A DNA stretch of 64,000 bases, from NCBI GenBank assembly GCA_038063415.1, contig JBBTVD010000006.1, positions 137,948-201,947 on the forward strand. The letters are read 5' to 3'. The DNA comes from Patescibacteria group bacterium (GTDB lineage Bacteria > Patescibacteriota > Microgenomatia > Levybacterales > UBA12049). The position numbers and the translations under genes were made by a program. This document shows, in pieces, positions 1,782 to 58,350 of the stretch (its first letter is position 1; every line of letters begins with the position of its first letter). Under the pieces are notes generated by a model that saw only the letters and a list, made by a program, of their open reading frames with translations, had not been told where the DNA came from and made no database searches.

Positions 1782-3383
1782 ATGTTTACTTCGATCAAAC
1801 ACTTTTTTGCAGCAATTGATAAAGCACTCGCTGTCTCAGAAAAATATATTGACAAACGAATCCTTACGGGAAAATTTGTTGAGGATCTTGTAACACTTAC
1901 TGTGTTAGGCAAAAAGTATCTCAAAAAGCATTGGCCTGATTGGTGCAAAAAGATTCTGGCCGCACCTATCACCAAACTACTCATTAAGATCGCTCTTTTC
2001 AGTATAGGAATCATGAGAAAAATCCCCATCTTCGGAGAGATTGTACCGCTCAGTGCAGATGGTTTTAATCTGTGGGGAAAGTTTTTTAACCAACTTTCTT
2101 TACTTTTTCTGAGTACCTTGCTTCTCTTTTTTGGACAAGTTTTACTCCTCAATAATTCTCTTTTACTCTTTTTTATTACCCTCCCCCTTTCGCTGCTTCT
2201 GCTTCTTTTAACCATCATAACAACCTATGCTCTCTTGCAAAAAAGGGATGAAAAAAAGCCCACAAAGTCATTGGCTGAAATAAAAGAAATACTCAAACAG
2301 TCTTTTTTCTCTTTTTCATTTTTATTTTTCTATCACCTTTTTATTTTATTGAATATCTTGATACTTTTCTTTTTGTTTGCTTTCTTTTTACAAACAAGCT
2401 TTAACGAGTTTACAAGTACATGGACTTCTTCGTTTATTTTCTGGTTAAGTATTCTTTTTGTTGGCTCACTGCTTCTTTTCTGCGCAACTCTTTTTAGCTT
2501 GATAGCCTGGCAGGCATATTTTGGCGTTATTTTTGCGCAACAAAAAACTTTTTCTTCGCTTGTTCTTAGTTGGCAATTGCTCAAGAGGCATGCTTCAGTT
2601 CTTTGTTTTTTCCCTTTATGTATCGTTTTTCTTTCCATTCCTGCCGTAGAATGGGCAGGACTCCAACATACTATCTCGGGCAGCAGTTTAGGTCTTTTTC
2701 TCCTCTTTCATATTCTTCTCTTTCTGGGGTGGCTGATGCGAAGAAGATTTCTAGATACCCAGCAACCAGAAGGAATCAAGCGGCCAGCAAATATGCGAGT
2801 TTTTCATATACTTTTTGGCATTGGAGTACTCAACTATATACTGCTCACTACCACGATGGTTCAGTTTAACCCGCAGATTTCTGTTTACATTCAAGAGCTA
2901 CGAAATCAACTCCTTCTCTTACGAGTTTTTGAGACCTATACCAACAAGCAATTTGGCTATACGATCCAATATCCTACCTCATGGAGCGTCTATGAATGGG
3001 ATCAACGGAAACAATCAGTAACTCTTTATACCAACGAAACCAAAACAGAAAACGGAGGTATCTGGGTAACAATTACCGTACTGCCTGTGAAGGAAACAGA
3101 GTTTGAAAACTTGCTGTCTGAAAAACCAGGACTTATTAGCTATGATACAGGAACTAGAGACCTTGTTAGCAAAATTACTAATTTTTCTCTGCAAGAATAT
3201 CAAGGACTTGAGTATACCTACATAAAAGAGGCCAAACCTTATGCAGAATACCAAAAACACTACCTTATCAGACGTGGTGACAATGTCTATGATATCTCCC
3301 TCCGAACAAATAGCAGAGAAGTTGAGGCACAGAATAGTATGCTTTTTAGAAAGATTATCGATTCATTCAGACTCACTAACTGA
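1782..3383 (+). CDS. polytopic membrane protein with a C-terminal soluble domain (PsbP-like/DUF-type fold suspected)
   Basis: 533 aa. About 10 hydrophobic helices fill the first 380 aa. The C-terminal ~150 aa (YTNKQFGYTIQYPTSWSVYEWDQ...) is non-membrane and resembles PsbP-like beta domains. No catalytic motif recognised. Confidence 0.35.
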   Translation: MFTSIKHFFAAIDKALAVSEKYIDKRILTGKFVEDLVTLTVLGKKYLKKHWPDWCKKILAAPITKLLIKIALFSIGIMRKIPIFGEIVPLSADGFNLWGKFFNQLSLLFLSTLLLFFGQVLLLNNSLLLFFITLPLSLLLLLLTIITTYALLQKRDEKKPTKSLAEIKEILKQSFFSFSFLFFYHLFILLNILILFFLFAFFLQTSFNEFTSTWTSSFIFWLSILFVGSLLLFCATLFSLIAWQAYFGVIFAQQKTFSSLVLSWQLLKRHASVLCFFPLCIVFLSIPAVEWAGLQHTISGSSLGLFLLFHILLFLGWLMRRRFLDTQQPEGIKRPANMRVFHILFGIGVLNYILLTTTMVQFNPQISVYIQELRNQLLLLRVFETYTNKQFGYTIQYPTSWSVYEWDQRKQSVTLYTNETKTENGGIWVTITVLPVKETEFENLLSEKPGLISYDTGTRDLVSKITNFSLQEYQGLEYTYIKEAKPYAEYQKHYLIRRGDNVYDISLRTNSREVEAQNSMLFRKIIDSFRLTN

Positions 3384-4928
3384 TGGATTGTAGGGAACAA
3401 GCTTGTAGAGTGTACCTACTGCTACTGGCCACTCAGCAACGATCTCTGCACGACCAAAGCCGGCAATCTCCCATAATGAATTTCCAAGTGGCTCACAGGG
3501 TCCCTCACAGAGGACAAACAGCTGTGCTGTTGTCGTATCCCTTTTAGGATCGATAGCATCACTCTCAATGAGAACTGGGTCTTGCTTGTAATAAGAAAAA
3601 TAATAACGATAAGCATGATCAGAATTTCCACCGGAAAGCAATGCAAAGTTGAACGGTTTTCCTCCTGTTTTAGATAAAATAAACTGAGAAAGTTTTTGTA
3701 CCTGAATTTTCTGTTTGTGAGAGGGGTAGCGGAAAGGAGCATCAATAAGATTAAAAAGGAATAAGGAGAAAAACAGTACTATACTCAAAACCAAGCATAC
3801 TTTCTTTGTCCCTTTCTTTTTTCCCCAAGAAGAAAAAACAGAAAGTGCATTACCAACAAGAAGAAAAGGTAGTGGAAAAAGGATTACCATATGATAGTCC
3901 AAAATTTCTTTTTTATTAATACCAAAAAGGATAAGACTCATACTAAGCCAAAGGGATAAAAGCAAAGTAACGAGTTTATTTTTGATAAAAAGCATACCGA
4001 TGAGTGCAGCTAACCCCAGAAGAACAGCAGCCGTTAACCAAAGAAACAATGTCGTTTGTGGAAACATTGCTGAGATATCGGGCAATGGGTAATGGAAAAG
4101 TAGCCGACCAAATAAACGGAAGAATGCGTCGTATATGTGTCCAAAAAATGAACCATTGCCTTCATATGTTCCTCCTTGCAGCGTATCTCCAAAGATAAAA
4201 AGAAAGATTGCTTGCGTATTGGGGAATCCATGACGAACTTCAAAGGCAATAAAGGCGATAAATCCAATAAGAAAACCAAGAAATAACTGTGCATATTTTT
4301 TAAGATAGATTAGCAGTTGTATTTTTCGCTGTTGATACCAGAGACCGAGAGGAAGATAGACCACAACTATAGCAAAAAGAAATAACGAGAGATAATGCAG
4401 TTGGATTGCAATACCAAGCAAGAAGCCGGTTAGGATAACGTATCGATAAGATTTTACTGCCGTAATACTTTTATAGGTTGTATAGATAAGCAGCAAAGCA
4501 ACAAAGGGAAGCACATTGGGATTCCAGGAAGAGCGTGAATAATGAATTATTAAGGGAGAAACAGCATATAATGCTGCTGCCATAATCCCCGCTCTTTCAC
4601 TAAAAAAGCGTTTACCGACAAAATAGATAAGAAAAACGGTTGCTACACCGACAAGCGCAACCATCACAGCCGGCCCCACAGGATCGTACTGAAAAAGCCA
4701 AAGGAAGGGGGTAATCATATAATAATACGCTGGCCCCATGAAAAAATCTCCAGCAGAGGATCGTGGGCCAAGTAACGTGAGGTTACCTTCAAGTATTCCT
4801 TTGGCAATCAAAACATCTCGTCCTTCGTCGCCTAGAAAGGTCATATAATCCGAGATATTGTACAGCCGGAGAAAAGTTGCTAGCAGCAAAATACCAATAA
4901 GTAGGGCAAGCGATATTTTGTTTTTCAT
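3363..4928 (-). CDS. GT-C family glycosyltransferase (GT39/GT83, PMT/ArnT-like dolichyl- or polyprenyl-phosphate-sugar:protein/lipid glycosyltransferase)
   Basis: 521 aa and polytopic. It has a DE motif in the first extracytoplasmic loop (FLGDEGRDVLIAKG) and the YYYMITP...HYSRSSWNPN pattern typical of ArnT/PMT GT-C enzymes. Confidence 0.7.
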   Translation of the reverse strand: MKNKISLALLIGILLLATFLRLYNISDYMTFLGDEGRDVLIAKGILEGNLTLLGPRSSAGDFFMGPAYYYMITPFLWLFQYDPVGPAVMVALVGVATVFLIYFVGKRFFSERAGIMAAALYAVSPLIIHYSRSSWNPNVLPFVALLLIYTTYKSITAVKSYRYVILTGFLLGIAIQLHYLSLFLFAIVVVYLPLGLWYQQRKIQLLIYLKKYAQLFLGFLIGFIAFIAFEVRHGFPNTQAIFLFIFGDTLQGGTYEGNGSFFGHIYDAFFRLFGRLLFHYPLPDISAMFPQTTLFLWLTAAVLLGLAALIGMLFIKNKLVTLLLSLWLSMSLILFGINKKEILDYHMVILFPLPFLLVGNALSVFSSWGKKKGTKKVCLVLSIVLFFSLFLFNLIDAPFRYPSHKQKIQVQKLSQFILSKTGGKPFNFALLSGGNSDHAYRYYFSYYKQDPVLIESDAIDPKRDTTTAQLFVLCEGPCEPLGNSLWEIAGFGRAEIVAEWPVAVGTLYKLVPYNPSVSESE

Positions 4929-8170: not shown

Positions 8171-9127
8171 TTACACTTCTTTTCTCCAGTAATCAAGAAT
8201 TGCTTTAAGGCTCTCTTCAAGTGAAATTTCAGGCTTCCAACCAGTCAGATTATGCATCTTACTTGTATCTGCACGGATTTCAGGGACATCACTTGGTCGC
8301 AATTTTGTTGCATCTACTTCAGGATGAATAGCGACCGATGATAAAGAAAGTAAGATATCAAGCACTTCTTGTATTGAATGAGAGACACCTGAACCAATAT
8401 TGTAGACCTCTCCCTCTTTACCTCTTTCGAGGAGTAGGACATATGCTCGTACCATATCGCGAACATCAGTAAAGTCTCGACGAGCCTCTAGGTTGCCAAT
8501 ATGGATGATTGGTTTTTGTTTACCTTTTTCTATATGTGCAATTTGTCTAGCGAAGTCTGAGGTGACAAATCCTGTTTTTTGACGAGGGCCAATATGGTTA
8601 AATGGCCGTACACGGATAAGTGGTAATTGATATGAAAGGTAATACTGTAGTGCTATATAATCCTGGGTTATCTTTGATACAGCATAAGGATTTACTGGAC
8701 GAAATGGCGTTGTTTCTTTTATAGGAATATCTTGCGGATCAAGTCTTCCGTACGTCTCAGCTGAACCGACAATCAGTACTCGTGTCGATACGAACGATTG
8801 CTCACGAAGGACATCAAGAAGATATATTTGTGAATCAATATTTGCATGAAGGGTTTTAATTGGATCCTCAAAACTCTGTGGGACATTTGATTGGGCAGCT
8901 AAGTGATAGACATAATCAGGATGACTCTGTGCAATGGCAACTCGAACTGCTTGTTTATCGGTAAAATCTGCTTTAATGAAATGAATGTTGTCTTTGACTG
9001 GTGAACGATCAAGACTTCCCTCAGAAGAATAGGTTCCGTAGATTTCTGCTTCACCTTTTTGCAACAAGTATTCACACAGATATCCACCAACAAAGCCAGA
9101 GGCCCCAGTAATTAATATGCTTTTCAT
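8171..9127 (-). CDS. rmd: GDP-4-dehydro-6-deoxy-D-mannose reductase (GDP-D-rhamnose synthase, Rmd-type SDR)
   Basis: ITGASGFVGGYL...SAETYG...NPYAVSK...RPFNHIGPRQKTGFVTSDFARQIA...DFTDVRD closely parallels Pseudomonas Rmd. It sits next to gmd. Confidence 0.7.
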   Translation of the reverse strand: MKSILITGASGFVGGYLCEYLLQKGEAEIYGTYSSEGSLDRSPVKDNIHFIKADFTDKQAVRVAIAQSHPDYVYHLAAQSNVPQSFEDPIKTLHANIDSQIYLLDVLREQSFVSTRVLIVGSAETYGRLDPQDIPIKETTPFRPVNPYAVSKITQDYIALQYYLSYQLPLIRVRPFNHIGPRQKTGFVTSDFARQIAHIEKGKQKPIIHIGNLEARRDFTDVRDMVRAYVLLLERGKEGEVYNIGSGVSHSIQEVLDILLSLSSVAIHPEVDATKLRPSDVPEIRADTSKMHNLTGWKPEISLEESLKAILDYWRKEV

Positions 9128-15784: not shown

Positions 15785-15849
15785 TGTCATCCTGAGCGAG
15801 CGAAGGATCTTGGCTAAAAAAGATTCTTCGGCAACGCCTCAGAATGACA
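15785..15849. repeat. 65-bp palindromic MITE-like element (TGTCATCCTGAG ... CTCAGAATGACA termini) between tsaC and the GIY-YIG gene
   Basis: 12-bp terminal inverted repeats with one mismatch, plus an internal GAAGGATCTT...AAGATTCTTC sub-palindrome. The right terminus encodes the last codons and stop of the GIY-YIG gene. Confidence 0.6.
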
Positions 15850-17826: not shown

Positions 17827-17896
17827 ATGATTTAAGTTTAGTATATTTTACTTGGGAGAGTAAAGAGGCTTATTTACTCATATTACACAATGCTCC

Positions 17897-17966
17897 GTCA
17901 TTCTGGCTTGTCCAGAATCCGTCATATGATCCTGGATGCGCTCGTACCTTGCTTACCAGGATGACG
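17897..17966. repeat. palindromic element copy (GTCATTCTGG-CTTGT-CCAGAATC hairpin plus CGTCATATGATCCTGG...CCAGGATGACG inverted repeat)
   Basis: Same TGTCATyC termini family as at 15785. The 23-nt hairpin is identical to 23917-23939. Confidence 0.55.
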
Positions 17967-20837: not shown

Positions 20838-21299
20838 TTACTCCACTACTTCTACTTTGCCTACATCCATAAGCCAACCAGCTTTTTGCGCTTGCTGTGT
20901 CTCGCCCCACACTTTGATCTTTCTTCCAACGAACAACGATAGGTCAATGACCGAGGAGGTCAGATAGACATTTTGACTTTCTCCGCCTTTGCGTACGAGA
21001 TGATATTGTCCTTCTCCCTCAATACCACCTTCTTGCAAATCTCCCTCAGCCGTGTCGGTAAACGTTGCCCGATCATCTGAGCCATATGTTTGTCCGACAG
21101 CAACCTCTTGCTTGGTTACAGGAGCCTTCTGAACTCCTCCACCAGGCTCTGACATGACGGTAACAAGTGCCCATCCAGAACCGATACCAAGAACTGCCGA
21201 AAGAGCAAGTACTGTCAGAGCCTTTCCGACAGAAACACCTTCTTTTTGTTCTGCAAAGCTATGCATTACCGGCGCTGGTGTTCTTTCTTGCTGTTCCAT
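20838..21299 (-). CDS. hypothetical membrane-anchored protein upstream of ftsE
   Basis: 153 aa, one TM (ALTVLALSAVLGIGSGWALVTV) and a soluble C-terminal domain. No family recognised. Confidence 0.4.
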   Translation of the reverse strand: MEQQERTPAPVMHSFAEQKEGVSVGKALTVLALSAVLGIGSGWALVTVMSEPGGGVQKAPVTKQEVAVGQTYGSDDRATFTDTAEGDLQEGGIEGEGQYHLVRKGGESQNVYLTSSVIDLSLFVGRKIKVWGETQQAQKAGWLMDVGKVEVVE

Positions 21300-21404
21300 G
21301 TGTCATTTCAGTAAGTTATCCCTATGCTTAGTAAAACACATTTTCTTTTTTTTGGCAACCCGACACCTATTGACAGAGGCATGTTCTTCATATAGAGTGA
21401 CTGC

Positions 21405-22250
21405 ATGAATCTCCCAACACTTCTCAGACAAAAACGTACCATTATTATGGGTATTATAAATAGTACCCCTGATTCATTCTCGGATGGTGGAGACTACTAT
21501 AATAATACAGACAAAACACTTAATCGAATCAAAAACATGCTTACACAAGGAGCAGATATTATTGATATTGGGGGCGAATCAACCAGACCAGGCTCTGAAC
21601 TCATCAATAGCGACGAAGAATTACGAAGAGTGCTTCCCCTTATTACCGCTATGAGACAAGCTTTAGGAGAAGAAATTATTATTAGTATTGATACCTGGAA
21701 ACATACCGTGGCACAGGAAGCACTCAGAGCTGGAGCAACGATGATTAATAGTCTGGGTGGATTGCAACTCGATCATAAGCTGGCAGATGTGGTAGCCCAC
21801 TATCACTGCCCTATCGTCATCTATCATATTAAAGGTGAACCCAAAACCATGCAGCAAGGGGAAATAACCTATACTGACGTCATGCAAGCAATTGCAGACT
21901 TTTTTACTGAGCAATTAAGGCTAGGAGAAAAAGCAGGTATCACAAGAAAGAATTTTATTCTTGATCCTGGTATTGGATTTGGCAAGACAGTTGAACAGAA
22001 TCTCGAAGTTATCAAACGATTAAAAGAATTACAGCAGTTTGATCTGCCGGTACTTATTGGTGTTTCACGAAAGAGTCATCTGGCAATGATTTTGCAAGAA
22101 GAGCTTGGAGAAGAAATTCTTCCAAAGGACAGACTTGAAGCATCACTTGCTGAGACTGCTATTGCGATCCAGAACGGAGCACAGATCGTCAGAACACATG
22201 ACGTCTGGGAAACCAAAAAGTTTGTAACAGTCCTTGAGAAATTTTTATAA
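21405..22250 (+). CDS. folP: dihydropteroate synthase
   Basis: IMGIINSTPDSFSDGG...IIDIGGESTRPG...DTWK...DPGIGFGK. Confidence 0.85.
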   Translation: MNLPTLLRQKRTIIMGIINSTPDSFSDGGDYYNNTDKTLNRIKNMLTQGADIIDIGGESTRPGSELINSDEELRRVLPLITAMRQALGEEIIISIDTWKHTVAQEALRAGATMINSLGGLQLDHKLADVVAHYHCPIVIYHIKGEPKTMQQGEITYTDVMQAIADFFTEQLRLGEKAGITRKNFILDPGIGFGKTVEQNLEVIKRLKELQQFDLPVLIGVSRKSHLAMILQEELGEEILPKDRLEASLAETAIAIQNGAQIVRTHDVWETKKFVTVLEKFL

Positions 22251-22252
22251 TT

Positions 22253-22606
22253 ATGGATACTCTTTTTATCAACGATATTACGCTTCCTTGTACCATCGGT
22301 GTTACGGAGTTGGAAAGAAAAGAGAAACAAACCCTTATTATTACTGTGGCACTTTCCGTTGACCTACAAAAGGCAGGAGAAACAGATAATGTAAACGATA
22401 CGGTAAATTATAGTACTCTTTATCAACACATCGTTAAAGTCACAACAGGCTCAAAATTTTTCCTTATGGAGGCTCTCGCTCAACAAATTGCAACCGTTTG
22501 TCTTGAGGATAAACGAGTAAAACAAGCAAAAATTCGTATTGAAAAACCGAAGACGGTACGACTGGCCCGTTCTGCTGCCGTAGAAATAATAAGAACCAAT
22601 GAGTAA
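22253..22606 (+). CDS. folB: dihydroneopterin aldolase
   Basis: 117 aa. [34 protein letters not shown] is the FolB pattern. Confidence 0.75.
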
Positions 22607-23162
22607 TAAAAAAATTGAATTACTAATCACACAACTATTGCAAGAATTGGGAGAAGACCCCTCTCGTGAGGGACTTAAAAAAACACCCAGAAGAGTGAGT
22701 CACATGTTTACCGATCTGACCAAAGGATACACTACTACTCGGGCAACAACCATCAATAAAGCACTTTTTACTGAACAAGTGCACAATATGATTATCCTTC
22801 GAGATATCGAGCTCTATAGTCTGTGCGAACATCACCTCTTACCTTTTTTTGGCAAGTGTCATATCGGCTACATTACCAAAGGCAAAGTAATTGGCGTCAG
22901 TAAAATTGCCAGAATTGTCGATCGATTCGCAAGGCGACTACAAATCCAGGAACGATTAACACAAGAAATAGCCAACGAGCTACAAGAAGTATTACAACCT
23001 TTGGGAGTTGGTGTAGTTATTGAAGCACAGCATCTTTGCATGATGATGCGAGGTGTAGAAAAGCAAAACTCCGTTATGGTGACAGCAGCAGTCCTTGGCA
23101 ATTTCCGAAGCGAACTGGCTACCAGACAAGAATTTATGACGATTATTCACAAAAATATATGA
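22599..23162 (+). CDS. folE: GTP cyclohydrolase I
   Basis: GLKKTPRRV...[20 protein letters not shown]...QERLT...HLCMMMRGV. Confidence 0.85.
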
Positions 23163-23860
23163 AGATTCCAGGCGTTTTTACGACAATTAAGATTACTCAT
23201 GGACAACCGATCTTTCTTGAGAAACATCAAGCAAGACTTATCGCTCATGCCAAACAAGCAGGTTTCCAAATCCATACGACTGCTATAACACAAAAAATAG
23301 TAACATGGTTGCAAGATCATCCGCTAAAAGATTGTGTACTCAAAATAAGTATTTTAGGAGAGTATAAGGAACCAGAAATTCTTTTTGCTACCCGAGAGTT
23401 ACCACAAACCTCAGGTTCAATTCGCCTCATTAGTGTTCCTGATAATCGCGATGTGTCAAAAGTTATCAAAAGTATTGATCGGACAATGTATGAGCAAGCA
23501 AAGCAAATGGCGCAAGCAAAAGGAGCTGATGATGCGATCTTTGAAGAAGATGGATACCTGATCGAATCAACGATCTGTAATCTTTTTTCTCTCAATAAGA
23601 AAGGTGAAATTATTACTCCACCAATTGCTGGTAAAGGGTTAGCAGGAGTTATGCGGGCAAGCATTATGGAAAATTTTCCGGTTCGTGAAGAACCTATCCC
23701 AAAGACAACAAACGGACCATTGGTTTTGACAAATAGTTTACGGGTACAAAAAGCAAGTTCGCTTGATGGAAGAATACTCGCTGACGGAGAAGTATTGTTA
23801 GAAAAACTAAAAATAACAATAAATAAAGCCGAATTTAAATATCTGTCATCCCGTACTTGA
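23159..23860 (+). CDS. pabC: aminodeoxychorismate lyase (class IV PLP aminotransferase fold)
   Basis: MKIPGVFTT...[12 protein letters not shown]...GVMR is a PabC-like pattern. The ATG at 23159 overlaps the folE stop. The track ORF extension 23036-23158 was rejected. The stop codon lies within the terminal repeat of a palindromic element. Confidence 0.6.
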
Positions 23861-23939
23861 TACGGAATCCATGGATTCCCGCTTTTGCTGGAATGACAAT
23901 TCTAAGTTTTTTATTCGTCATTCTGGCTTGTCCAGAATC
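23844..23939. repeat. composite palindromic element (TGTCATCCCG...GGAATGACA with internal 16-bp perfect palindrome GGAATCCATGGATTCC, followed by GTCATTCTGGCTTGTCCAGAATC hairpin)
   Basis: Termini are inverted repeats with one mismatch. The second hairpin is identical to 17897-17919. The element occupies the entire pabC-pabB intergenic region. Confidence 0.55.
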
Positions 23940-23950
23940 TTTTATTTAAA

Positions 23951-25375
23951 ATGCACAATAAAAAATTACCAATCTGGGTCGATCCCAAAGCAGTCTTTAC
24001 TGATCTTTTTGCCGCGGCTCCGGCAGCCTTTTGGCTTGATACAAGTCTGCCCAACGATGAAAAGAGATTCTCCTATATGGGCCTACCCAAAGAAATTATC
24101 TCCTACGACCTTCAAACTAATACAATAACCATACAGAAAGATTCTCACATCACAAAAATAACCCAAGATATCTTTACTTATCTCAATAGGAAGCTACAAC
24201 AACAGGCTTTTGAAGACAAAACACTTCCTTTTCCCTTTATCGGAGGATACGTCGGTTACTTCGGTTATGAATTAAAAGCACTCTGCGGAGTGAAAAACAC
24301 CTACCAGTCTCCTTATCCTGATAGTGTATGGTTCAAGGTTGAGCAATATATTGTCTTTGACCATCAAGAAAAAGAGGTTTACCTTGCTTGTCTAACAAAA
24401 AAAAAGCAACTTGCAGACAAATGGTTCCAGGACATACAAAAAAATTTATTGTCATCCCGAGTACCCCATAGAAAGTCGAGGAATCTCACACCGCAGAGAA
24501 ACTTGTTTGCAACAGACCCCTCCACTCGTTCCTCGGTCGGGATGACATTTTCCCGTGAACAACAACAATATCTTAAGGACATACAAACAGCTAAAAAATA
24601 TCTTAACAAAGGAGAAAGCTATCAAATTTGTCTTACCAATACCCTTACCAAAAAAGTAACAATTGACCCCCTTCTTCTTTATCAAACGCTGAGAAAAAGT
24701 AACCCTGCTCCGTATGCTGCGTATCTTCGCTATAATGATCTCACCGTTCTCTGCTCTTCTCCCGAACAGTTTCTCAAAATTGATGCAGGTGGAACAGTCA
24801 CAACCAAACCAATCAAAGGAACAATAGCTCGTGGTAATACCTTGCAAGAAGATATCTTGCTTAAAAAACAACTCGCAGAAAGCAAAAAGGACTGGTCAGA
24901 GAACGCTATGATTATTGACTTACTACGAAATGATCTGGGGAAAGTATGTACGTTCGGTTCGGTAAAAGTAACAAAACCAATGGCAATAGAGACGTATCAA
25001 ACAGTACATCAACTTGTTTCAACGGTACAGGGCAAATTACATAAGGATACTTCAGTTATTGATTGCATCAAAGCCTGCTTTCCCGGCGGATCAATGACCG
25101 GAGCGCCAAAAACACGAACAATGGAAATTATTGAAAAATTAGAAAAGCAAGCACGAGGCATCTATTCTGGAGCACTTGGATTTCTTAGCTACAATAAAAC
25201 AGCGTCACTGAACATCGTTATCAGGACGATGGTCATGCAAAAAGATGCGGTAAGTATTGGCGCTGGTGGAGCCATTTTGATTGATTCAGATCCAGAGAAA
25301 GAATATGAAGAAATGCTACTCAAAACAACAGCTTTACAAAACGCGATTCAAAATTCTTTAGAGAGTGAGGAATAA
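23951..25375 (+). CDS. pabB: aminodeoxychorismate synthase component I
   Basis: Chorismate-binding domain blocks SYQICLTN, PEQFLKI, TKPIKGT, DLLRNDLG and FPGGSMTGAPK. It carries an in-frame ~33-aa insert at residues ~167-200, encoded by a palindromic element. Confidence 0.8.
   Translation: MHNKKLPIWVDPKAVFTDLFAAAPAAFWLDTSLPNDEKRFSYMGLPKEIISYDLQTNTITIQKDSHITKITQDIFTYLNRKLQQQAFEDKTLPFPFIGGYVGYFGYELKALCGVKNTYQSPYPDSVWFKVEQYIVFDHQEKEVYLACLTKKKQLADKWFQDIQKNLLSSRVPHRKSRNLTPQRNLFATDPSTRSSVGMTFSREQQQYLKDIQTAKKYLNKGESYQICLTNTLTKKVTIDPLLLYQTLRKSNPAPYAAYLRYNDLTVLCSSPEQFLKIDAGGTVTTKPIKGTIARGNTLQEDILLKKQLAESKKDWSENAMIIDLLRNDLGKVCTFGSVKVTKPMAIETYQTVHQLVSTVQGKLHKDTSVIDCIKACFPGGSMTGAPKTRTMEIIEKLEKQARGIYSGALGFLSYNKTASLNIVIRTMVMQKDAVSIGAGGAILIDSDPEKEYEEMLLKTTALQNAIQNSLESEE
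24450..24547. repeat. 98-bp palindromic MITE-like element inserted in-frame inside pabB (perfect 11-bp terminal inverted repeats TGTCATCCCGA / TCGGGATGACA)
   Basis: The termini are exact reverse complements. It belongs to the same terminus family as the elements at 15785 and 23844. The pabB reading frame stays open through it. Confidence 0.6.
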
Positions 25376-25469
25376 ATTTTTTCGCAGTGATCAATAGTGA
25401 AAAAATGATTCGGTAAAGATCTATAAAAGTTACTGCACGTGGAGCACAAGAAAAAATTTCATTCCGAAC
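25365..25469 (+). repeat. copy 1 of a ~100-bp direct repeat (GTGAGGAATAAATTTTTCGCAnTGATCAATAGnGAAAA ... CGTGGAnCAnAAGAAAAAATTTCATTCCGAAC), spanning the pabB stop and the folK upstream region
   Basis: The 5' ~40 nt and 3' ~35 nt are near-identical to copy 2 at 25969-26069, and the centre is divergent. It contains the pabB stop codon. Confidence 0.6.
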
Positions 25470-25514
25470 GACAACGCTAATGACAAAAAGCATCTAAGTC
25501 CCTATAATACCACC

Positions 25515-25979
25515 ATGCACACAATCTATCTCGCTCTTGGATCCAATGTCGGAAAAAAAGCAACATTTCTTACCCAAGCAATTGACAAGCTAAAAAAACA
25601 ACTGCAAAACGTGACGCTAGCAGATTTCTATACAACCCAACCAATGTATGTGGAAGATCAAGAAGAATTTTTAAATACAGTGATGCGGGCGGAGACATCT
25701 CTCTCTCCTGAATCACTCCTTACCTTTGTTAAAGGTCTGGAAAAAGAAATCGGAAGAAAAGAACGATTTCGGAATGGTCCCCGTGAGATTGACATCGACA
25801 TTCTTTTTTATAATGATGTGATTATGCACACAAACTTATTGCAAATTCCTCACCCTCGGATACAGGAACGAAACTTTGTTCTTCGACCTTTTATGGATAT
25901 TGCTCCAGAGTTTATGCATCCAGTGCTAAAAAAAACAATAAAAGAGATTTACAAAAAATTAAATATGCGTGAGGAATAA
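25515..25979 (+). CDS. folK: 2-amino-4-hydroxy-6-hydroxymethyldihydropteridine pyrophosphokinase
   Basis: IYLALGSNVG...REIDIDILFY...RPF is the HPPK pattern. Confidence 0.8.
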   Translation: MHTIYLALGSNVGKKATFLTQAIDKLKKQLQNVTLADFYTTQPMYVEDQEEFLNTVMRAETSLSPESLLTFVKGLEKEIGRKERFRNGPREIDIDILFYNDVIMHTNLLQIPHPRIQERNFVLRPFMDIAPEFMHPVLKKTIKEIYKKLNMREE

Positions 25980-26069
25980 ATTTTTCGCAATGATCAATAG
26001 CGAAAAGAATGGTAGTATGAGTAGTAAAGCATCTACGCGTGGATCATAAGAAAAAATTTCATTCCGAAC
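25969..26069 (+). repeat. copy 2 of the ~100-bp direct repeat, spanning the folK stop and the upstream region of the CofE-like gene
   Basis: See copy 1. It contains the folK stop codon (MREE* versus pabB ESEE*). Confidence 0.6.
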
Positions 26070-26084
26070 AGAATCCTAACGACG

Positions 26085-26825
26085 ATGATTGTAAAACCAT
26101 ACAAAACACATAAAATAACACCAAACGAAAATTTGTTTGAGATTCTCGATCGCTATTTGCCAAAAATTGAGGAAGGCAGTATCGTCGCAATTGCCTCAAA
26201 AATTGTCGGTATTTGTGAAGGGAGAGTGAGCAAAAAAGAATCACAAGAACAAAAGGACGAATTTATCAAACAAGAAGCGGAGTACTACTTACCAGAAAAA
26301 CATATGGAACTCCTACTGACGATTAATCACAATACCCTCGTCGTAAATGCAGGTATCGACGAATCAAATAGCAATGGCTTGCTTTCTCTCTGGCCTAACG
26401 ATCCACAACAAAGTGCCAACGTTATTCGCGAATATCTTAGCAAAAAATATAACATACAACGGATTGGCGTTATCCTAACTGACAGCAAAATAACACCACT
26501 TCGTTGGGGAGTTACCGGCTACATGCTAACACATAGTGGCTTTTTAGCATTAAAAAATTATATTGGCAAACAAGATATCTTTGGACAAACTATGCACGTC
26601 GAGCAAGCAAGCATTGCCGATTCTTTGGCAACGGCTGCAGTAGCTGTTACCGGTGAAGGTGATGAACAACAACCATTGGCAGTAATAACTGATGTTCCTT
26701 TTGTGGAGTTCCAACAACGAAATCCTACACACGAAGAATTGGAAGCACTCAAGATAACTCTTGAAGATGATGTCTATGCACCACTCCTCAAAGCAGTCAT
26801 CTGGCAAAAAGGGAAACAAAAATAG
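26085..26825 (+). CDS. CofE-like (F420-0:gamma-glutamyl ligase family, COG1478) protein; candidate FolC2-type dihydrofolate synthase/folylpolyglutamate ligase
   Basis: 246 aa with the CofE-like layout (IASKIVGICEGR, NAGIDESN, GVILTDSK) in a folate operon. Established knowledge: CofE homologs (FolC2) substitute for FolC in some bacteria. The functional assignment here is inference. Confidence 0.45.
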   Translation: MIVKPYKTHKITPNENLFEILDRYLPKIEEGSIVAIASKIVGICEGRVSKKESQEQKDEFIKQEAEYYLPEKHMELLLTINHNTLVVNAGIDESNSNGLLSLWPNDPQQSANVIREYLSKKYNIQRIGVILTDSKITPLRWGVTGYMLTHSGFLALKNYIGKQDIFGQTMHVEQASIADSLATAAVAVTGEGDEQQPLAVITDVPFVEFQQRNPTHEELEALKITLEDDVYAPLLKAVIWQKGKQK

Positions 26826-26826
26826 G

Positions 26827-27831
26827 TTATAATGCTCGTAGCTCTTCTTCGATAAACGAATCCAGGTCTCCGTCAAGAATCTTGTCAGGATTACCACTCT
26901 CCACATTAGTTCGCAAATCTTTCACCATTTTATACGGATGGAGGACATATGAGCGGATCTGATTCCCCCAACCAGGCGTTTTGTACCCACCTTTAAGGGC
27001 TGCTTCTTGCTTCTTGCGTTCTTCTTCACGAATTACCCATAACTTGGCCCGAAGCAATTTCATGGCAAACTCACGATTTTGGCTTTGAGAACGTTCTACT
27101 TGAGCTGTCACCACAAGACCCGTTGGTTTATGCTTTAGCCGCACTGCGGTTGATACTTTATTGACGTTTTGCCCACCATGCCCACCACTACGAAAAGCAT
27201 CAAATTCGATATCGTCTTCTTTGAGAAGTTCCGTATCATCATCAGGAACCTCAGGCATTATCTCAACAAGTGCAAATGATGTTTGGCGCAAACTGTCCGA
27301 ATTAAAAGGAGACAATCTCACTAGTCGATGTGTCCCCGCTTCATGTTTTAAGTGTCCATACGCATACATACCCGTGATCGCGATCGTAATACTTTTGAGA
27401 CCTGCCTCCTCTCCTGGTGTTTGATCAAGAATTTCATACGACCATCCTTTTCGTTCGCAATACCTGGTATACATACGAAAAAGCATCTCTGTCCAATCCA
27501 TAGCTTCCGTTCCTCCTTGACCGGAGTGAATACCAAGAATAGCATTGGATTTATCGTATGATCCCGAAAAGAAGAGAAGCGCTTCTAGCTTTTTAAGTAA
27601 TTTTTCTGCTTCAGCAGTCTCACCTTCTTCCTGCCACATTTGCAGGAGTTCTATTTCTTCAATCTCTTTCTGGAGCGTCGTTAACTCTTTCATTTTCTTC
27701 CCAGCAGTCTGATGATCCTGCCAGAAGTCGGCATGCATACTTTCTTTTTCCAGCTCAAGAATTCGTTTTTGCTTCTCCGGGATGTTTACCGTCGTTACCA
27801 ATTTATTAATACGTTCTTTAAGATTTTCCAT
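26827..27831 (-). CDS. prfB: peptide chain release factor 2 (no programmed frameshift)
   Basis: RLSPFNS (the SPF motif of RF2) and GGQ in [18 protein letters not shown] single continuous 334-aa ORF. Confidence 0.85.
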
Positions 27832-36247: not shown

Positions 36248-36892
36248 ATGAACCGCATTAAGGTCTTTATCAGTTACTCGTCTAAGCAAAAAATTATTGG
36301 AGGAAGGTTTAAATACTACCTTAACAATTATTGTGGCTATGAAACTTTTATTGCACACGACGATATTCCGCCATCGTCTATTTTTGAGGAAGAAATATTA
36401 AAAGCAATTGAGAGTACCGATCTCTTTATTCCGCTACTTTCTGATAAATTCAAAACCTCTGACTTTACTGATCAAGAAACAGGAGTCGCAGTAGGTATGA
36501 AAAAGAAAATTTTTCCCATAAAGCTACAAGATCTCAACCCTTATGGCTTTATTAACAAATATCATGCTTTACAATATAAGGAATATCCATCAAATTATTT
36601 TCCCAAGGACAACAGTAAAGAACTTGTTCTAGCGATCGCTCAGGTGTGTTTAAAAAATGAAGTATATCGAAGTAAGGCAATTGACTCGCTCCTTTATGCC
36701 TTTTGTCGAAGCACTTCTTTCGAAATAACAAACACTATTATAGAGCTCCTTTCTCGTCATGATCAGATGACATCAGAACAGCTTGATAAAATTACTACGG
36801 CAATAAAGACTAATGTACAAATTTCTGGAGCATGGGGCTTAGAAGAATTTAAGAAATTCTTACATACTAAGTACAACTGGAGCATTGACTGA
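36248..36892 (+). CDS. TIR-domain protein (stand-alone, TIR + ~85-aa C-terminal helical domain)
   Basis: KVFISYSSKQK N-terminal TIR strand, an FIPLLSDKF...FTDQETGVAV core with a conserved Glu, and a unique C-terminal extension. It is markedly AT-rich relative to flanking genes, divergent from nusA and convergent with the Clp operon. Confidence 0.65.
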   Translation: MNRIKVFISYSSKQKIIGGRFKYYLNNYCGYETFIAHDDIPPSSIFEEEILKAIESTDLFIPLLSDKFKTSDFTDQETGVAVGMKKKIFPIKLQDLNPYGFINKYHALQYKEYPSNYFPKDNSKELVLAIAQVCLKNEVYRSKAIDSLLYAFCRSTSFEITNTIIELLSRHDQMTSEQLDKITTAIKTNVQISGAWGLEEFKKFLHTKYNWSID

Positions 36893-37089: not shown

Positions 37090-39501
37090 CTACTCCACAG
37101 AGATATCCAAAGCACCTGTCCCATTCAAAAAGAAATTAACTTTCTTTCCACGAGTAATATCCTTGGTTAGTGTATGTTGCGCAAGAAGATCCTCGATATT
37201 GTCCTGAATATACCGCCGAAGTGGTCTCGCACCAAAATCCTTATCAAATCCTTCGGAAACTATCTTTTCAATAACCGCCTCATCAAAAGTGACCGCAACA
37301 TCTTGCTCTGCCAAATGCTTTATCAGTTCATTCAGCATCAAATGAACGACTTTTGTTATTTGCTCGGGACCAAGTGGTTTAAAGGTAACCACATCATCAA
37401 ACCGATTGAGAAGCTCAGGTTTGAAAATCCCTTTTGTTTGTAAATACTGTACTAATTTCTGATGAAAAGCCTTATTAAAAGTCGTGCCGTGACTTAACTC
37501 CTCACGGATAAATTCTGAGCCAGCGTTGGAAGTGGCAATAATAATAGCGTTACGAAAAGATACTGTCTCACCTTTGTTGTCAGTCAAACGGCCATCATCA
37601 AGTATCTGTAAAAAGAGGTTATGAATTGCCGGATGTGCTTTCTCAAACTCATCAAGCAAGATAAGTGAGGCGGGATTATCACGTATTTGCTCTGTTAACA
37701 GGCCTCGTTCGCTTCCTTTACCAGGAGGTGAACCGAGAAGCCTTAGCAAGCCTGCTTCATCAGTATACTCACTCATATCAAAACGAATCATGTTTTTCTC
37801 TCCACCAAAGTAGTAACTTGCAAGCGCTTTGGCTGTTTCTGTCTTTCCTACACCAGTTGGCCCCAGAAAAAGGAACGATATTGGCCGCTCTGAGGTCATG
37901 ACACCAGAGCGTATACGACGCATTGCTTCAGCAATAGCGGTTACTGCATACTCTTGATCAATAAGCCGTTCATGAATCTTTTCTTCAAGATGCAGAAGGG
38001 TATTAATTTCTGATTGAGAGGGTGCGGCTATGGCTACATGGACTGTTTGTTCAACTTTTGTAATAACATCTTTCTCAAGTACGATTTTATGGTGCGTTTT
38101 TTCGAAAGTATCTGCATTGTCAGAGAGCGAGACCGTATTTGCCACTGTGCCAAGGAGTGCAATTGCACTTCCCGGAAGCACTTGATCCTGTAGGAATCGA
38201 TCGGCAAGCTCAACCGATGCAACAATTGCCCGATAACTAAGGATTACTTTGTATTTTTTTTCAATGACACTTGCTTCAGCAAGTACCATCTGCATTGTTG
38301 CTTCTTTGTCAGGCTCCTTCATCGGTATAATGGTAAAGGCTTCCTTTAAAGGATTCCTATCCATATAGGCCTTATAGCTACCAGTTGTCATGGTTGCAAT
38401 AATTGGCATATTGCCCGACTGGAGGTAAGGGAGAATAGCCCCTGAAAGATCAAGATTATAGGAAGTTGCGCCGACGATATTTTGAAATTCTGGAATATAA
38501 AGCACCACATCACTGGCATGTGAAAGCTCGCCAATAATAGCCTGTAGACGTACTTCCAAATCACTCCTGGTGGAAGCTCCAGCAGTGAGCGCACCGACAA
38601 GCAGTTGATAAAACTTCTTATAATTGAGGCCACCACCAAGATTACCCTCAAAACTATGATACGCCAAAGCTCGAATCAGATGTTCTTTTCCGACGCCACT
38701 TTCGCCAACAAGCAGTACATTATTACTTTCAAGTCTGAGAATACTCTCAAGCATCGTTTTGAATTCAGCCTCACGCCCTTTGATAAACGGTTCTCCACGA
38801 GTTGCGAGCGAGGTAAAGTCTGCTGTATATTTTTGGGTTTCGGGAGTCCAGCCATCAACTAATGCGTCACCAAACCCTCCCCCTTCAATATGTATTTGTA
38901 TTTTCTTCGGATTTTCTTCTTGAGGGAAAGCTACGCGTGCCCAAGTAACAATACTCACCAAATCCTGGGTTTTTAACTGCTTGGCAAATAATAGCTTGGT
39001 ATCTTTTTCAATCATAAGCAGATACGCAAGGAAAATATCAATCGTTGTTACATAGTTACCACGAAATGTTTTTGCTGTATCAAAAGCACTTTGTGCTAAT
39101 GTCTCACTTTTTAACGGTTCCAAAGGCAGATCTGTATGCGTAATTGTCGTTTTCTGCATAATTGCTTTTATTTGCGGATATTTAATAAGCTTCTGAAGAA
39201 TCTGGGTTGTTGTCTGACCTGTAGCAAAGCCATCAACTGCTTGTAACGTAAATGAATCATAGATTTTTTTACCATCGTTTTTTTCCACAGGAATTGCTGG
39301 TAAAACCCTGCTCACTTTATAATGGAAAAACAGTTCAATCATGACAAAAATATTAAAGAAGAATTGTGGGAGAACAGGAGAGAGACCATTGGTTAGATTA
39401 TAATAAAGAATGTAGACTAACAAGAAAAAGATAAGTAATCGGATACTCCGAAGCAAAGCATTTCTGTACCATTTATATAATTTTGAGTAAAGAACCATCA
39501 T
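37090..39501 (-). CDS. membrane-anchored Clp/Hsp100-family double-AAA+ ATPase (ClpC/ClpA-like)
   Basis: Two N-terminal TM helices, Clp_N-like repeats, NBD1 (LLVGESGVGKEHL) and NBD2 ([17 protein letters not shown]...LLDEFEKAHP...GRLTDNKG...ATSNAGS...GARPLRR). Confidence 0.75.
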   Translation of the reverse strand: MMVLYSKLYKWYRNALLRSIRLLIFFLLVYILYYNLTNGLSPVLPQFFFNIFVMIELFFHYKVSRVLPAIPVEKNDGKKIYDSFTLQAVDGFATGQTTTQILQKLIKYPQIKAIMQKTTITHTDLPLEPLKSETLAQSAFDTAKTFRGNYVTTIDIFLAYLLMIEKDTKLLFAKQLKTQDLVSIVTWARVAFPQEENPKKIQIHIEGGGFGDALVDGWTPETQKYTADFTSLATRGEPFIKGREAEFKTMLESILRLESNNVLLVGESGVGKEHLIRALAYHSFEGNLGGGLNYKKFYQLLVGALTAGASTRSDLEVRLQAIIGELSHASDVVLYIPEFQNIVGATSYNLDLSGAILPYLQSGNMPIIATMTTGSYKAYMDRNPLKEAFTIIPMKEPDKEATMQMVLAEASVIEKKYKVILSYRAIVASVELADRFLQDQVLPGSAIALLGTVANTVSLSDNADTFEKTHHKIVLEKDVITKVEQTVHVAIAAPSQSEINTLLHLEEKIHERLIDQEYAVTAIAEAMRRIRSGVMTSERPISFLFLGPTGVGKTETAKALASYYFGGEKNMIRFDMSEYTDEAGLLRLLGSPPGKGSERGLLTEQIRDNPASLILLDEFEKAHPAIHNLFLQILDDGRLTDNKGETVSFRNAIIIATSNAGSEFIREELSHGTTFNKAFHQKLVQYLQTKGIFKPELLNRFDDVVTFKPLGPEQITKVVHLMLNELIKHLAEQDVAVTFDEAVIEKIVSEGFDKDFGARPLRRYIQDNIEDLLAQHTLTKDITRGKKVNFFLNGTGALDISVE

Positions 39502-56773: not shown

Positions 56774-57340
56774 ATGACACAAAAACAGCCAGAAATAACT
56801 GTAGAACTAGAAGACCAGGCAATTGTCATTGCTGAGGAAGTATTCGAGCTTATTCATGAATATACACATGATAGCGCACTTTCAAAGTTCTTTTTAACTG
56901 ATGAAATTGCAAACGCCTCATATGTCCTTGCTGGTGGATTTGCTGCAGTCATTTATAACCCAGCGTTAGATCCAAAGGAAGTAGAAGATACTGAAATACT
57001 TTCCTTCTTGTATGCAATGATTACCTATGGCTTTAATCTTGCATTGAAAGAAAGATCATTGCTGACAAATTCTTCGCCATATACACTTCCTAATGATAAA
57101 AAAAAGATTAAGGCTGTCCAAAAACATCTCTTGGAAAAGGCAAGCAAAGGGGATCTGGAAGCAACAGGATTAGGCAACAAAATTATTGCGATTATTGTCA
57201 ATAATATAAAAACGAAAATTGCAATTCGCGACTTTAGAATAAAAGATCATCGGATCCAAACAAAAAAATTCCATGAATATGCAAAGCTTTCTCTCTATTG
57301 GGGATATAATTTTGCACATTTGCTCTTAAAAAGTAACTAA
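56774..57340 (+). CDS. hypothetical protein
   Basis: 188-aa soluble helical protein. No family recognised. Confidence 0.35.
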   Translation: MTQKQPEITVELEDQAIVIAEEVFELIHEYTHDSALSKFFLTDEIANASYVLAGGFAAVIYNPALDPKEVEDTEILSFLYAMITYGFNLALKERSLLTNSSPYTLPNDKKKIKAVQKHLLEKASKGDLEATGLGNKIIAIIVNNIKTKIAIRDFRIKDHRIQTKKFHEYAKLSLYWGYNFAHLLLKSN

Positions 57341-58350
57341 TCAAGCACTTCCTTCGTTGGCTCTTTTTGTTTTTCAGCCATCATTGCATAATTGATAATA
57401 AGCAACATAAAGATATTTGCGGATAAGCTTATCAACTCATACCACTGTGATTGCATAAAAGCAAAAAATTCGGTAAGAAAGATGGTAACAAGAATTGCTA
57501 TTCGGAAAAACCGATAGCCTTCTTTGCGAGAAAATCTAAGGGCAAAAATGCCAATCAAAACAAATGTTCCAGAAAGTGTCGAAGAGTAAAGCTTGCCCCA
57601 TTCATCAAGAGGCAACTCAGGTCGAATAAAAAAAAGAACAACAGACTGTAACATTATTCCCACTGTTTGAAAAATTAAAAAAGCAATGACTATATTTAAG
57701 ATTAATCCTGATCGAGCCATACGGTAATACCATAGACGTAGTACATTACGCGCACGCCTATACATGCTTGGAGAACTTACCGGCTCGGCATCAATGCGGT
57801 GCAAAAGCCCTTTTAATGAACGAACAATTGGATCACTTTGATCACAATTTTTTAGATACTCCTTTGCTTGACGCTCATCTTCTTCGTCAAAATCATTTAC
57901 TGCTGACTCTTTAATTTTTTCGATAGTATTTACGAGGTATTCTTTCTCAGTACGTTTTTTATAGCGTGGTATAAAGCGAGAGATAAGATAAAGCAAGACA
58001 AAAATGATATAAATGAGAGCAATTGTCGGCTCAAAAAAATAGTCATTATCCCGAGTGACAAACTTACCTAATTCATCGATAAACGCACCAAAGCCAATAC
58101 CCCCAAGTACAGAAGCTATCCGCATAGCCGACGTATTTAAGAAAGAAAGAAGGATAACAATCGCACCAAGCATAAAAAAACCTCCCCAAAGAATATGTGC
58201 AATGTGGAAATCGCCTCCTCCTAGTTGTGGATAATCAGTAAGTTTAAGAAATATTCTAATACTAAAAATACTAAAAAGAGCTGAAATGAGAAAATGCTCC
58301 CAATAGCTCTCAGCATCAAAATTCCGAATAAGAATATCTTTAGAAAACAT
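57337..58350 (-). CDS. hypothetical polytopic membrane protein
   Basis: 337 aa with ~7 TM helices and a central acidic soluble loop (DFDEEDERQAKEYLKNCD). Confidence 0.4.
   Translation of the reverse strand: MFSKDILIRNFDAESYWEHFLISALFSIFSIRIFLKLTDYPQLGGGDFHIAHILWGGFFMLGAIVILLSFLNTSAMRIASVLGGIGFGAFIDELGKFVTRDNDYFFEPTIALIYIIFVLLYLISRFIPRYKKRTEKEYLVNTIEKIKESAVNDFDEEDERQAKEYLKNCDQSDPIVRSLKGLLHRIDAEPVSSPSMYRRARNVLRLWYYRMARSGLILNIVIAFLIFQTVGIMLQSVVLFFIRPELPLDEWGKLYSSTLSGTFVLIGIFALRFSRKEGYRFFRIAILVTIFLTEFFAFMQSQWYELISLSANIFMLLIINYAMMAEKQKEPTKEVLD

Follow-up and report, generated by a model that had tools for sequence, protein, structure and literature searches.

Members of the Candidate Phyla Radiation (CPR, or Patescibacteria) are usually described as incapable of making most cofactors and nucleotides. 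What is the role of a seven-gene folate cluster in the genome of such a bacterium, and which enzyme attaches glutamate to the folate if the cluster ends in a gene of the F420 ligase family? This question was addressed computationally for a 64-kb stretch of a Patescibacteria group bacterium (assembly GCA_038063415.1, contig JBBTVD010000006.1, positions 137,948 to 201,947), hereafter called the window, in which the folate island occupies positions 21405-26825 with all seven genes on the plus strand. We consider it likely that the region is a natively inherited CPR folate operon (Levyibacteriota-related, Microgenomates) ending in a FolC2-type ligase. The genes are listed below with their lengths in amino acids (aa), Pfam matches and, in brackets after the NCBIfam bit scores, the model cutoffs.

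21405..22250, plus strand: folP, dihydropteroate synthase, 281 aa; PF00809 Pterin_bind, E 1.5e-81; TIGR01496, 297.2 bits (162.6)
22253..22606, plus strand: folB, dihydroneopterin aldolase, 117 aa; PF02152, E 4.4e-30; TIGR00525, 86.2 bits (72.15)
22599..23162, plus strand: folE, GTP cyclohydrolase I of the FolE1 type, 187 aa; PF01227, E 3.5e-73; TIGR00063, 246.6 bits (181.6)
23159..23860, plus strand: pabC, candidate aminodeoxychorismate lyase, 233 aa; PF01063 Aminotran_4, E 7e-28, 98.4 bits
23951..25375, plus strand: pabB, aminodeoxychorismate synthase component I, 474 aa; PF00425 Chorismate_bind, E 3.1e-91, and PF04715 Anth_synt_I_N, E 8.1e-20; TIGR00553, 347.4 bits (328.4)
25515..25979, plus strand: folK, hydroxymethyldihydropterin pyrophosphokinase, 154 aa; PF01288 HPPK, E 2.7e-38; TIGR01498, 134.7 bits (54.1)
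26085..26825, plus strand: FolC2-like gamma-glutamyl ligase of the CofE family, 246 aa; PF01996 F420_ligase, E 1.5e-33, 116.6 bits against a Pfam cutoff of 25

FolP, FolB, FolE and FolK each passed the cutoff of their equivalog model in NCBIfam, and PabB passed TIGR00553 with all TrpE models under cutoff. PabB has no fused amidotransferase, and its translation contains TKPIKGT, i.e. the PIKGT motif with the PabB-type lysine, the catalytic K274 in E. coli PabB, where TrpE has alanine. PabC was recognized at the level of the fold: it passed the class IV aminotransferase model (PF01063), and its best NCBIfam model, TIGR03461, gave 61.3 bits against an equivalog cutoff of 176.85. Its identity is nevertheless supported by the operon context and by PabC-PabB fusions in relatives, the orthologous domain being fused to the N-terminus of PabB in three of the related loci described below (L005, L008 and L034). 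The open reading frame (ORF) containing pabC spans 23036-23860; judging from the sequence, the start is most likely the ATG at 23159, which overlaps the folE stop as ATGA and agrees with the N-termini of homologues. The first four genes are tightly packed or overlapping (the folE start overlaps the folB end by 8 nucleotides, nt), and pabB, folK and the ligase gene follow spacers of 90, 139 and 105 nt, respectively.

The identity of the last product of the folP-folB-folE-pabC-pabB-folK-ligase cluster was examined by comparing the competing family models. Its best NCBIfam model was TIGR04132 ("putative folate metabolism gamma-glutamate ligase"), aligned end to end at 264.2 bits and leading every other model by more than 140 bits. 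The protein fell under the cutoffs of all four CofE equivalog models, with CofE scores of 99-122 bits (TIGR01916, 122.5 vs 180.65; NF009809, 117.7 vs 274; NF009810, 99.1 vs 304 bits). Homologues from CPR, Cardinium and Holosporales behaved in the same way, with 213-336 bits on TIGR04132 vs 99-132 bits on TIGR01916. A full-length comparison of the ligase with a Chlamydiales protein bearing NCBI's TIGR04132 name gave 45% identity, and close homologues of the ligase (65-73% identical) carry the JGI label "dihydrofolate synthase / folylpolyglutamate synthase". NCBI names the identical protein "coenzyme F420-0:L-glutamate ligase".

The only solved relatives of the ligase are CofE structures from A. 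fulgidus (E 5e-20), which also took the top four places in a Foldseek search with a low-confidence model of the ligase and were its sole significant fold match. The motifs NAGIDxSN, TD(S/T) and GEG are common to the ligase and CofE, and invariant across the family alignment. In CofE, the F420 chromophore is held by F92, G153-C155 and R234 (PMC10861534). The HMMER sequence alignment places CofE G153-R154-C155 opposite I136-T137-P138 of the ligase, F92 falls in a CofE-only insertion, and the alignment ends before R234; the C-terminal 44 residues of the ligase contain family-invariant positions and do not align to CofE. As far as these alignments reach, the CofE chromophore pocket is not conserved in the ligase, which may therefore perform CofE-like chemistry on a different head group. 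For the founding member of the family, Chlamydia CT611 (FolC2, COG1478), the prediction came from gene clustering, and the gene rescues an E. coli folC mutant (PMC1971073, PMC4161248). By family membership and gene context, we infer that the window ligase is likewise a dihydrofolate synthase / folylpolyglutamate synthase.

How far does the likeness to the known systems go? As with FolC2 of C. trachomatis (CT611), we are dealing with a CofE-family fold encoded in a folate cluster of a reduced-genome bacterium with no FolC visible nearby, with TIGR04132 as the best hidden Markov model (HMM) and with 45% identity to a Chlamydiales family member. Unlike FolC2, the window ligase is under the family cutoff (264 vs 350 bits), its activity is predicted, its host belongs to the CPR and is not an intracellular pathogen, and its cluster has no folA. 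In place of the RibA/TrpF and CT610 of Chlamydia, the window operon also has FolE and PabB/PabC, the canonical routes. With CofE and FbiB's N-terminal domain (2PHN, 2G9I, 7ULD) the ligase shares the fold, the three motifs and, presumably, the chemistry of nucleotide-dependent gamma-glutamyl amide bond formation, but it lies below all CofE cutoffs, does not conserve the F92, G153-C155 and R234 pocket, has a different though family-conserved C-terminal tail, and stands in a folate rather than an F420 context. Canonical FolC, of the Mur-ligase family (COG0285), would share its inferred reaction and its position in the pathway (PMC1971073), but has an unrelated fold, which makes the case one of non-orthologous displacement.

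In the route that these assignments suggest, FolE, FolB and FolK would lead from GTP to hydroxymethyl-dihydropterin pyrophosphate, with no gene assigned to the FolQ pyrophosphatase step. PabB and PabC would convert chorismate to p-aminobenzoate, with nitrogen supplied to PabB either as ammonia, which the enzyme by itself accepts in vitro, or by an amidotransferase whose gene lies elsewhere. FolP would couple both halves to give dihydropteroate, to which the CofE-fold ligase, probably GTP/Mn-dependent, would add the first glutamate (dihydrofolate synthase activity), replacing the Mur-ligase FolC, and probably further glutamates (folylpolyglutamate synthase activity). Apart from the FolQ and PabA gaps, the route is covered as far as dihydrofolate or folylglutamate, and not to tetrahydrofolate.

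The remainder of the window was surveyed for the missing steps. A total of 52 ORFs of at least 117 aa were run through Pfam or NCBIfam. These 52 did not include the two largest ORFs, of 1329 and 1425 aa, nor FtsE, FtsX, the PcsB-like protein, PrfB, the 2-hydroxyacid dehydrogenase and PNPase, which were named via precomputed Pfam matches on the products or their orthologues. None of the 52 ORFs encoded dihydrofolate reductase (DHFR)/RibD_C, ThyA, ThyX, a Mur-ligase FolC, a class I amidotransferase (PabA) or a cof product, and tblastn of the window with the RibD_C, GATase and Vut_1 proteins of relatives gave no match. Neither a Mur-ligase-type protein nor a cof or fbi gene was present in the window or noticed in the inspected ligase flanks of related loci. 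The missing DHFR role may fall to a RibD_C-type protein like those found beside the ligase in relatives, none of which occurs in the window. The cluster lacks pabA in most relatives too. The exception is L007, where a bona fide TrpG/PabA (TIGR00566, 186 bits vs cutoff 121) and a divergent PabB (48% identical) are encoded by a pair inverted between pabC and folK (2661-4597), suggesting that the pab module was replaced in this genome.

Several observations weigh against our interpretation of the region as a FolC2-type folate operon. No DHFR, PabA or FolQ gene was found within the 64-kb window, and no shikimate-pathway gene, for chorismate supply, turned up in the family-search results, although no search was aimed at that pathway; the completeness of the pathway is therefore unproven. 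The absence of a canonical folC applies to the window, 64 kb of a contig of at least 380 kb, and such a gene could lie elsewhere in the genome. The ligase scores under the curated TIGR04132 cutoff (264.2 vs 350 bits). However, Cardinium (328 bits), Holosporales (263-287 bits) and other CPR homologues (213-300 bits) miss this cutoff as well, indicating that it excludes much of the wider clade. The predicted structure of the ligase is poor (pLDDT, the predicted local distance difference test, of 60.3, from a 12-sequence alignment). Finally, the ligase occurs with no folate gene nearby in L040, L041 and Cardinium, and the transporter family that accompanies it in some relatives (Vut_1/COG1738, TIGR00697) is annotated "queuosine precursor transporter", which weakens the salvage argument made below.

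A first-pass annotation of this DNA had described the island as complete, which is overstated: DHFR, FolQ and PabA are missing from the window, and the word applies to the route up to dihydrofolate without FolQ and PabA. Its gene assignments, order and coordinates coincide exactly with the ORFs and are borne out by the Pfam and NCBIfam matches, with PabC at the fold level only, and the absence of pabA from the cluster, which it had pointed out, agrees with the ORF survey and the tblastn search. It had also read the last gene as a COG1478/CofE-like ligase of the FolC2 type instead of a canonical FolC, and had proposed a PF01996 search of 26085-26825; the preference for TIGR04132 over TIGR01916 (264 vs 122 bits) and the PF01996 score favour the same view, and the FolC2 activity it mentioned for Chlamydia is the published complementation by CT611. 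Its conditional suggestion that the organism is CPR-like agrees with the origin of an identical protein in a Patescibacteria metagenome-assembled genome and with the CPR-labelled relatives, which in the Genome Taxonomy Database (GTDB) are mostly Levyibacteriota.

The hypothesis that the operon is native to its lineage was assessed in 33 related loci, 31 from GTDB genomes and two bearing one metagenome homologue; L039 and L040 were added after this comparison. In the window, the plus-strand cluster is preceded by minus-strand genes for a PcsB-like protein, FtsX, FtsE and a hypothetical protein, and followed by prfB and a hypothetical gene, again on the minus strand. Of the 33 loci, 15 have the ligase in this slot (ftsE/ftsX/hypothetical, fol genes, prfB/hypothetical), and ten of the 15 contain folate synthesis genes. 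The contents of the loci are as follows, with cassette coordinates where the de novo genes are absent.

L003/L004, L005, L008, L021: full folate set in the slot
L007, L034: full folate set, one flank off the contig
L010: folP-folB-folE-folK and the ligase, without pab genes
L013: ligase, folP and folE
L009, L011, L015: folP and the ligase
L012 (8824-10762), L023 (7830-10747): Vut_1 transporter and ligase with a RibD_C/DHFR-like reductase between them, same slot
L027 (9348-10750): Vut_1 transporter and ligase without the reductase, same slot
L006 (28-1972): transporter, reductase and ligase as in L012, flanks not seen on the contig
L029 (3160-4576): transporter and ligase as in L027, flanks not seen on the contig
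L039 (5815-8321): transporter, reductase and ligase with a class I amidotransferase-like protein

The folate proteins of the window are 44-82% identical to their orthologues in these loci, and FtsE, FtsX and PrfB are 63-80% identical. The GC content of the island is 0.390 vs 0.402 for the window, and 77 of 118 windows of the same size lie further from the window average in tetranucleotide composition than the island does. Since the composition is native and the divergence parallels that of the flanking genes, we conclude that the island was inherited within the lineage and differentially lost, with no recent acquisition.

Several of the relatives (L005, L007, L008, L011, L014, L015, L017, L020, L021, L023 and L027) bear a database label of "uncultured Gammaproteobacteria", Methylomirabilota, Sulfotelmatobacter or Acidiferrales. 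We judged these labels unreliable because of the CPR-type synteny and the 52-82% protein identity to the window; the contigs are probably mislabelled or contaminated bins. One of them, OZ246394.1, is a 1.61-Mb chromosome, large for a CPR bacterium.

The ligase is the gene of the slot that has been retained longest, suggesting that it also serves salvaged folate via polyglutamylation. Where the de novo genes are absent, it stands beside the reductase and the Vut_1 transporter (L006, L012, L023, L039) or beside the transporter alone (L027, L029), and the class I amidotransferase-like protein is part of the cassette in L039 and L023. The cassette occurs in Levyibacteriota-like and Saccharimonadales contigs, and is possibly a folate or pterin salvage cassette. 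That the ligase is kept with the reductase or the transporter where the synthesis genes are absent is consistent with a role in handling folate even after de novo synthesis has been lost.

The junctions of the last four genes differ between the window and its relatives. PabC-PabB-FolK fusions of about 850 aa are encoded in L005 (7452-10001) and L034 (2986-5547), a PabC-PabB fusion of 689 aa in L008 (7435-9501), and PabB-FolK fusions of about 640-660 aa in L003 (8021-9949) and L021 (8013-9992); at the third junction of relatives, folK abuts or overlaps the ligase gene. The PabB-FolK and triple fusions unite the p-aminobenzoate and pterin branches in a single polypeptide. In the window, the same region contains the following repeats.

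23844..23900: E1a, 57-nt palindrome, TGTCATCCCG...GGAATGACA, with internal GGAATCCATGGATTCC
23916..23939: small hairpin repeat GTCATTCTGGCTTGTCCAGAATC in the pabC-pabB spacer, terminator-like on the plus strand (23920-23938)
24450..24547: E1b, 98-nt palindrome with perfect 11-bp terminal inverted repeats, TGTCATCCCGA / TCGGGATGACA
25366..25484: E2a, filling the pabB-folK spacer and starting with TGAGGAATAA, the last codons and stop of pabB
25970..26084: E2b, filling the folK-ligase spacer and starting with TGAGGAATAA, the end of folK

The reading frame of pabC terminates within E1a, which encodes its C-terminal residues and stop (..L S S R T *), at a site where the PabC-PabB reading frame is continuous in relatives. 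The stop codons of pabC, pabB and folK thus all lie inside repeats, at the pabC/pabB, pabB/folK and folK/ligase junctions. E1a folds at -16.3 kcal/mol (z -2.3), and E1b at -32.2 kcal/mol (z -3.6), a stability reached by none of 200 shuffled sequences. The reading frame of PabB runs through E1b, which encodes residues ~167-199 of the protein. These belong to the linker that joins its two Pfam domains, and no other stretch of PabB is hypervariable when homologues are aligned. Palindromes of the E1 type (GTCAT...ATGAC termini) occur at four sites of the window, 15786-15848, 17897-17965, E1a and E1b. The first two lie outside the island, one in the annotated 5' end of a Sua5/TsaC ORF and the other in an intergenic region. 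The termini match in three of the four elements and less well in E1a, and the interior sequences are not alike. Within the window E1b has no second copy of full length, nor was a target-site duplication recognized. An identical 24-nt copy of the small hairpin lies at 17896-17919.

E2a and E2b are 77% identical over 114 nt (E 4e-16; element length ~110-115 nt) and are not significantly structured (z -0.8 and -1.7). There were no further copies of E2 in the window or in the related loci compared. We rejected E2 as a widespread mobile element: no other copy was found, and a scan of JGI metagenome contigs with its conserved 22-mer returned three contigs sharing only that stretch. An integron attC-like cassette around folK, considered because direct repeats flank the gene, was rejected too, as E2 showed no inverse-core/core pattern by eye.

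Logan contigs break inside E1a and E1b. The repeats are base-for-base the same in two independent Logan assemblies from other runs (L001, L002), indicating that they are not an assembly artefact. They are small local insertions at gene junctions. Two histories are possible: either the repeats split a fused gene, or they colonized short spacers that were later closed in other lineages. The palindromic and duplicated elements supply three stops, the first two at junctions that are fusions in relatives and the third at a boundary where genes abut or overlap, with a further palindrome tolerated in frame within the PabB interdomain linker.

The linker of PabB has palindromic sequence in relatives as well. 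L003 (71% identical) has a different GTCAT...ATGAC palindrome at ~8580-8650, at the same codon position in the PabB linker but in another frame, and palindromic remnants are seen at this linker in L005, L008 and L034. Judging from these sequences, the linker resembles a hot spot for repeated insertion, in a manner reminiscent of Rickettsia palindromic elements (RPEs). As with RPEs and miniature inverted-repeat transposable elements (PMC10969869), E1b is ~100 nt long and self-complementary, has terminal inverted repeats, and lies in frame in a surface or linker region of an enzyme. Unlike the RPEs, it belongs to a sequence family that is unrelated as far as compared, with only about four related copies in 64 kb; no target-site duplication was identified, and any mobility of E1b would be putative.

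The seven genes are presumably expressed as an operon, and two promoter-like sites were noted on the plus strand.

21370..21398, plus strand: TTGACA-17-TAGAGT, 10 of 12 consensus matches, ending 6 nt before the folP ATG
25480..25508, plus strand: ATGACA-17-TATAAT, 11 of 12 consensus matches, the best in the region, ending 6 nt before the folK ATG

Both sites are no more than consensus matches, and the region as a whole does not hold more of them than expected from shuffling. Their positions hint at leaderless or near-leaderless transcripts at folP and folK, with a second entry point after E2a. A riboswitch or other known RNA in the spacers was considered and rejected, the only Rfam hit at the gathering threshold in the whole window being a tRNA; in an E-value scan of 21000-27000 the best hit had an E of about 1, a chance-level FtrB match over E1a.

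A more speculative reading goes further. The ftsEX-prfB slot would record a stepwise shift from de novo synthesis to salvage, with the ligase as the sole folate glutamyl ligase of the lineage. The relatives' COG1738/Vut_1 transporter, RibD_C DHFR-like reductase and FolC2-like ligase, with or without the class I amidotransferase-like protein, would form an undescribed folate/pterin salvage module, in which a queuosine-precursor transport family has been recruited for a pterin-type vitamin, and palindromes would have split a PabC-PabB-FolK fusion, one of them being co-opted as a protein linker. We regard this extended scenario as rather doubtful.

Could the ligase have a narrower or a different function? 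It might only extend glutamate tails for cofactor retention, with a canonical FolC from another part of the genome attaching the first glutamate. True CofE enzymes do extend tails (PMC10861534), and the ligase persists in relatives without folK, folB, folE and pabBC, where polyglutamylating salvaged folate would suffice. But no Mur-ligase-type protein was found in the window or noticed in the inspected flanks, the gene ends an operon at the point where a dihydrofolate synthase is needed, and CT611 alone rescues an E. coli folC mutant (PMC1971073), so we hold this explanation to be unlikely. That the protein is a genuine F420-0:glutamate ligase, with coincidental folate neighbours, is scarcely credible: the NCBI name of the identical protein, the Pfam family name F420_ligase and the solved CofE relatives speak for it, but the scores are below all four CofE cutoffs, the chromophore-binding residues are not conserved, cof and fbi genes are absent from the window and were not noticed in the inspected flanks of related loci, and the ligase again adjoins folate genes in 10 of the 33 related loci.

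The other two alternatives concern the island as a whole. According to the first-pass annotation, the extra repeats suggested that it had been assembled or acquired, in which case they would be scars of a recent horizontal transfer. The repeats themselves are real and unchanged in L001 and L002, and four to five of them lie within 2.3 kb of the island. In addition, de novo folate synthesis is rare in CPR (PMC6064768), and FolC2-like proteins also occur in unrelated intracellular bacteria. Yet the repeats sit at internal gene junctions and not at the island borders, palindromes of the E1 type occur outside the island too (15786-15848, 17897-17965), and the shared slot in 15 of 33 loci (10 with folate synthesis genes), the divergence parallel to the flanks and the native GC and tetranucleotide composition speak against an acquired or assembled island. 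We find a recent transfer very unlikely. It could also be argued that the operon is decaying and the pathway dead, the repeats having broken a PabC-PabB-FolK fusion and disrupted PabB, with PabA and DHFR gone; the stop codons inside repeats, the repeat inside PabB, the terminator-like hairpin between pabC and pabB and the stepwise loss of these genes at the locus in relatives are consistent with this notion. Against it stand seven full-length ORFs with end-to-end domain matches, a PabB insertion that is in frame and in a linker variable in every homologue, downstream genes that each keep the start methionine seen in relatives, and the promoter-like site upstream of folK, and we think decay improbable. 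The reading of a native CPR folate operon ending in a FolC2-type ligase is the one we prefer.

The remaining genes of the window have ordinary housekeeping and cell-envelope functions. A TIR-domain protein (36248-36892, plus strand; PF13676, E 1.7e-12), possibly defence-related, adjoins a ClpB-like double-AAA ATPase (37090-39501, minus strand). A multi-pass membrane protein without a Pfam family (57337-58350, minus strand) is 56% identical to the product of L006 1938-2960, which lies immediately downstream of the CofE-like gene in L006; in the window, 30 kb separate the two genes. The FolC2-like gene of Cardinium lies directly 3' of ftsA-ftsZ (L030 7152-10741, L031 1785-5405) with no folate gene nearby, and in L031 it is apparently split into two ORFs, a possible pseudogene. 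Just past prfB, two relatives have a de novo purine cluster (L003 12282-20738, L039 10802-14172) in which unusual fusions occur, namely PurF-PurN (699 aa) and, in L003, a 1416-aa GARS-FGAR-AT-AIRS protein; PurH and an ATP-grasp protein resembling archaeal-type PurP are encoded in L003 as well. Different genes occupy this place in the window. The purine set of these relatives is unusually rich for CPR, and it is folate-dependent.

Our findings place a known type of system, the displacement of FolC by FolC2, in a new lineage. The known mechanism is unchanged, and both the enzyme family and its role are already present in the literature and in JGI and NCBIfam annotation. What is extended is the range of this solution, in which a CofE-fold enzyme replaces FolC, from Chlamydia-like intracellular bacteria to the CPR. 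There is also a case of systematic mis-annotation, in that the F420-ligase names given by NCBI could lead to the false assumption of F420 metabolism in CPR. A CPR lineage whose folate operon is intact and inherited qualifies the picture of cofactor-deficient CPR bacteria, and together with the adjacent purine synthesis genes of relatives it raises the possibility that some members of the CPR are less host-dependent than that picture implies, and may even act as suppliers of vitamins.

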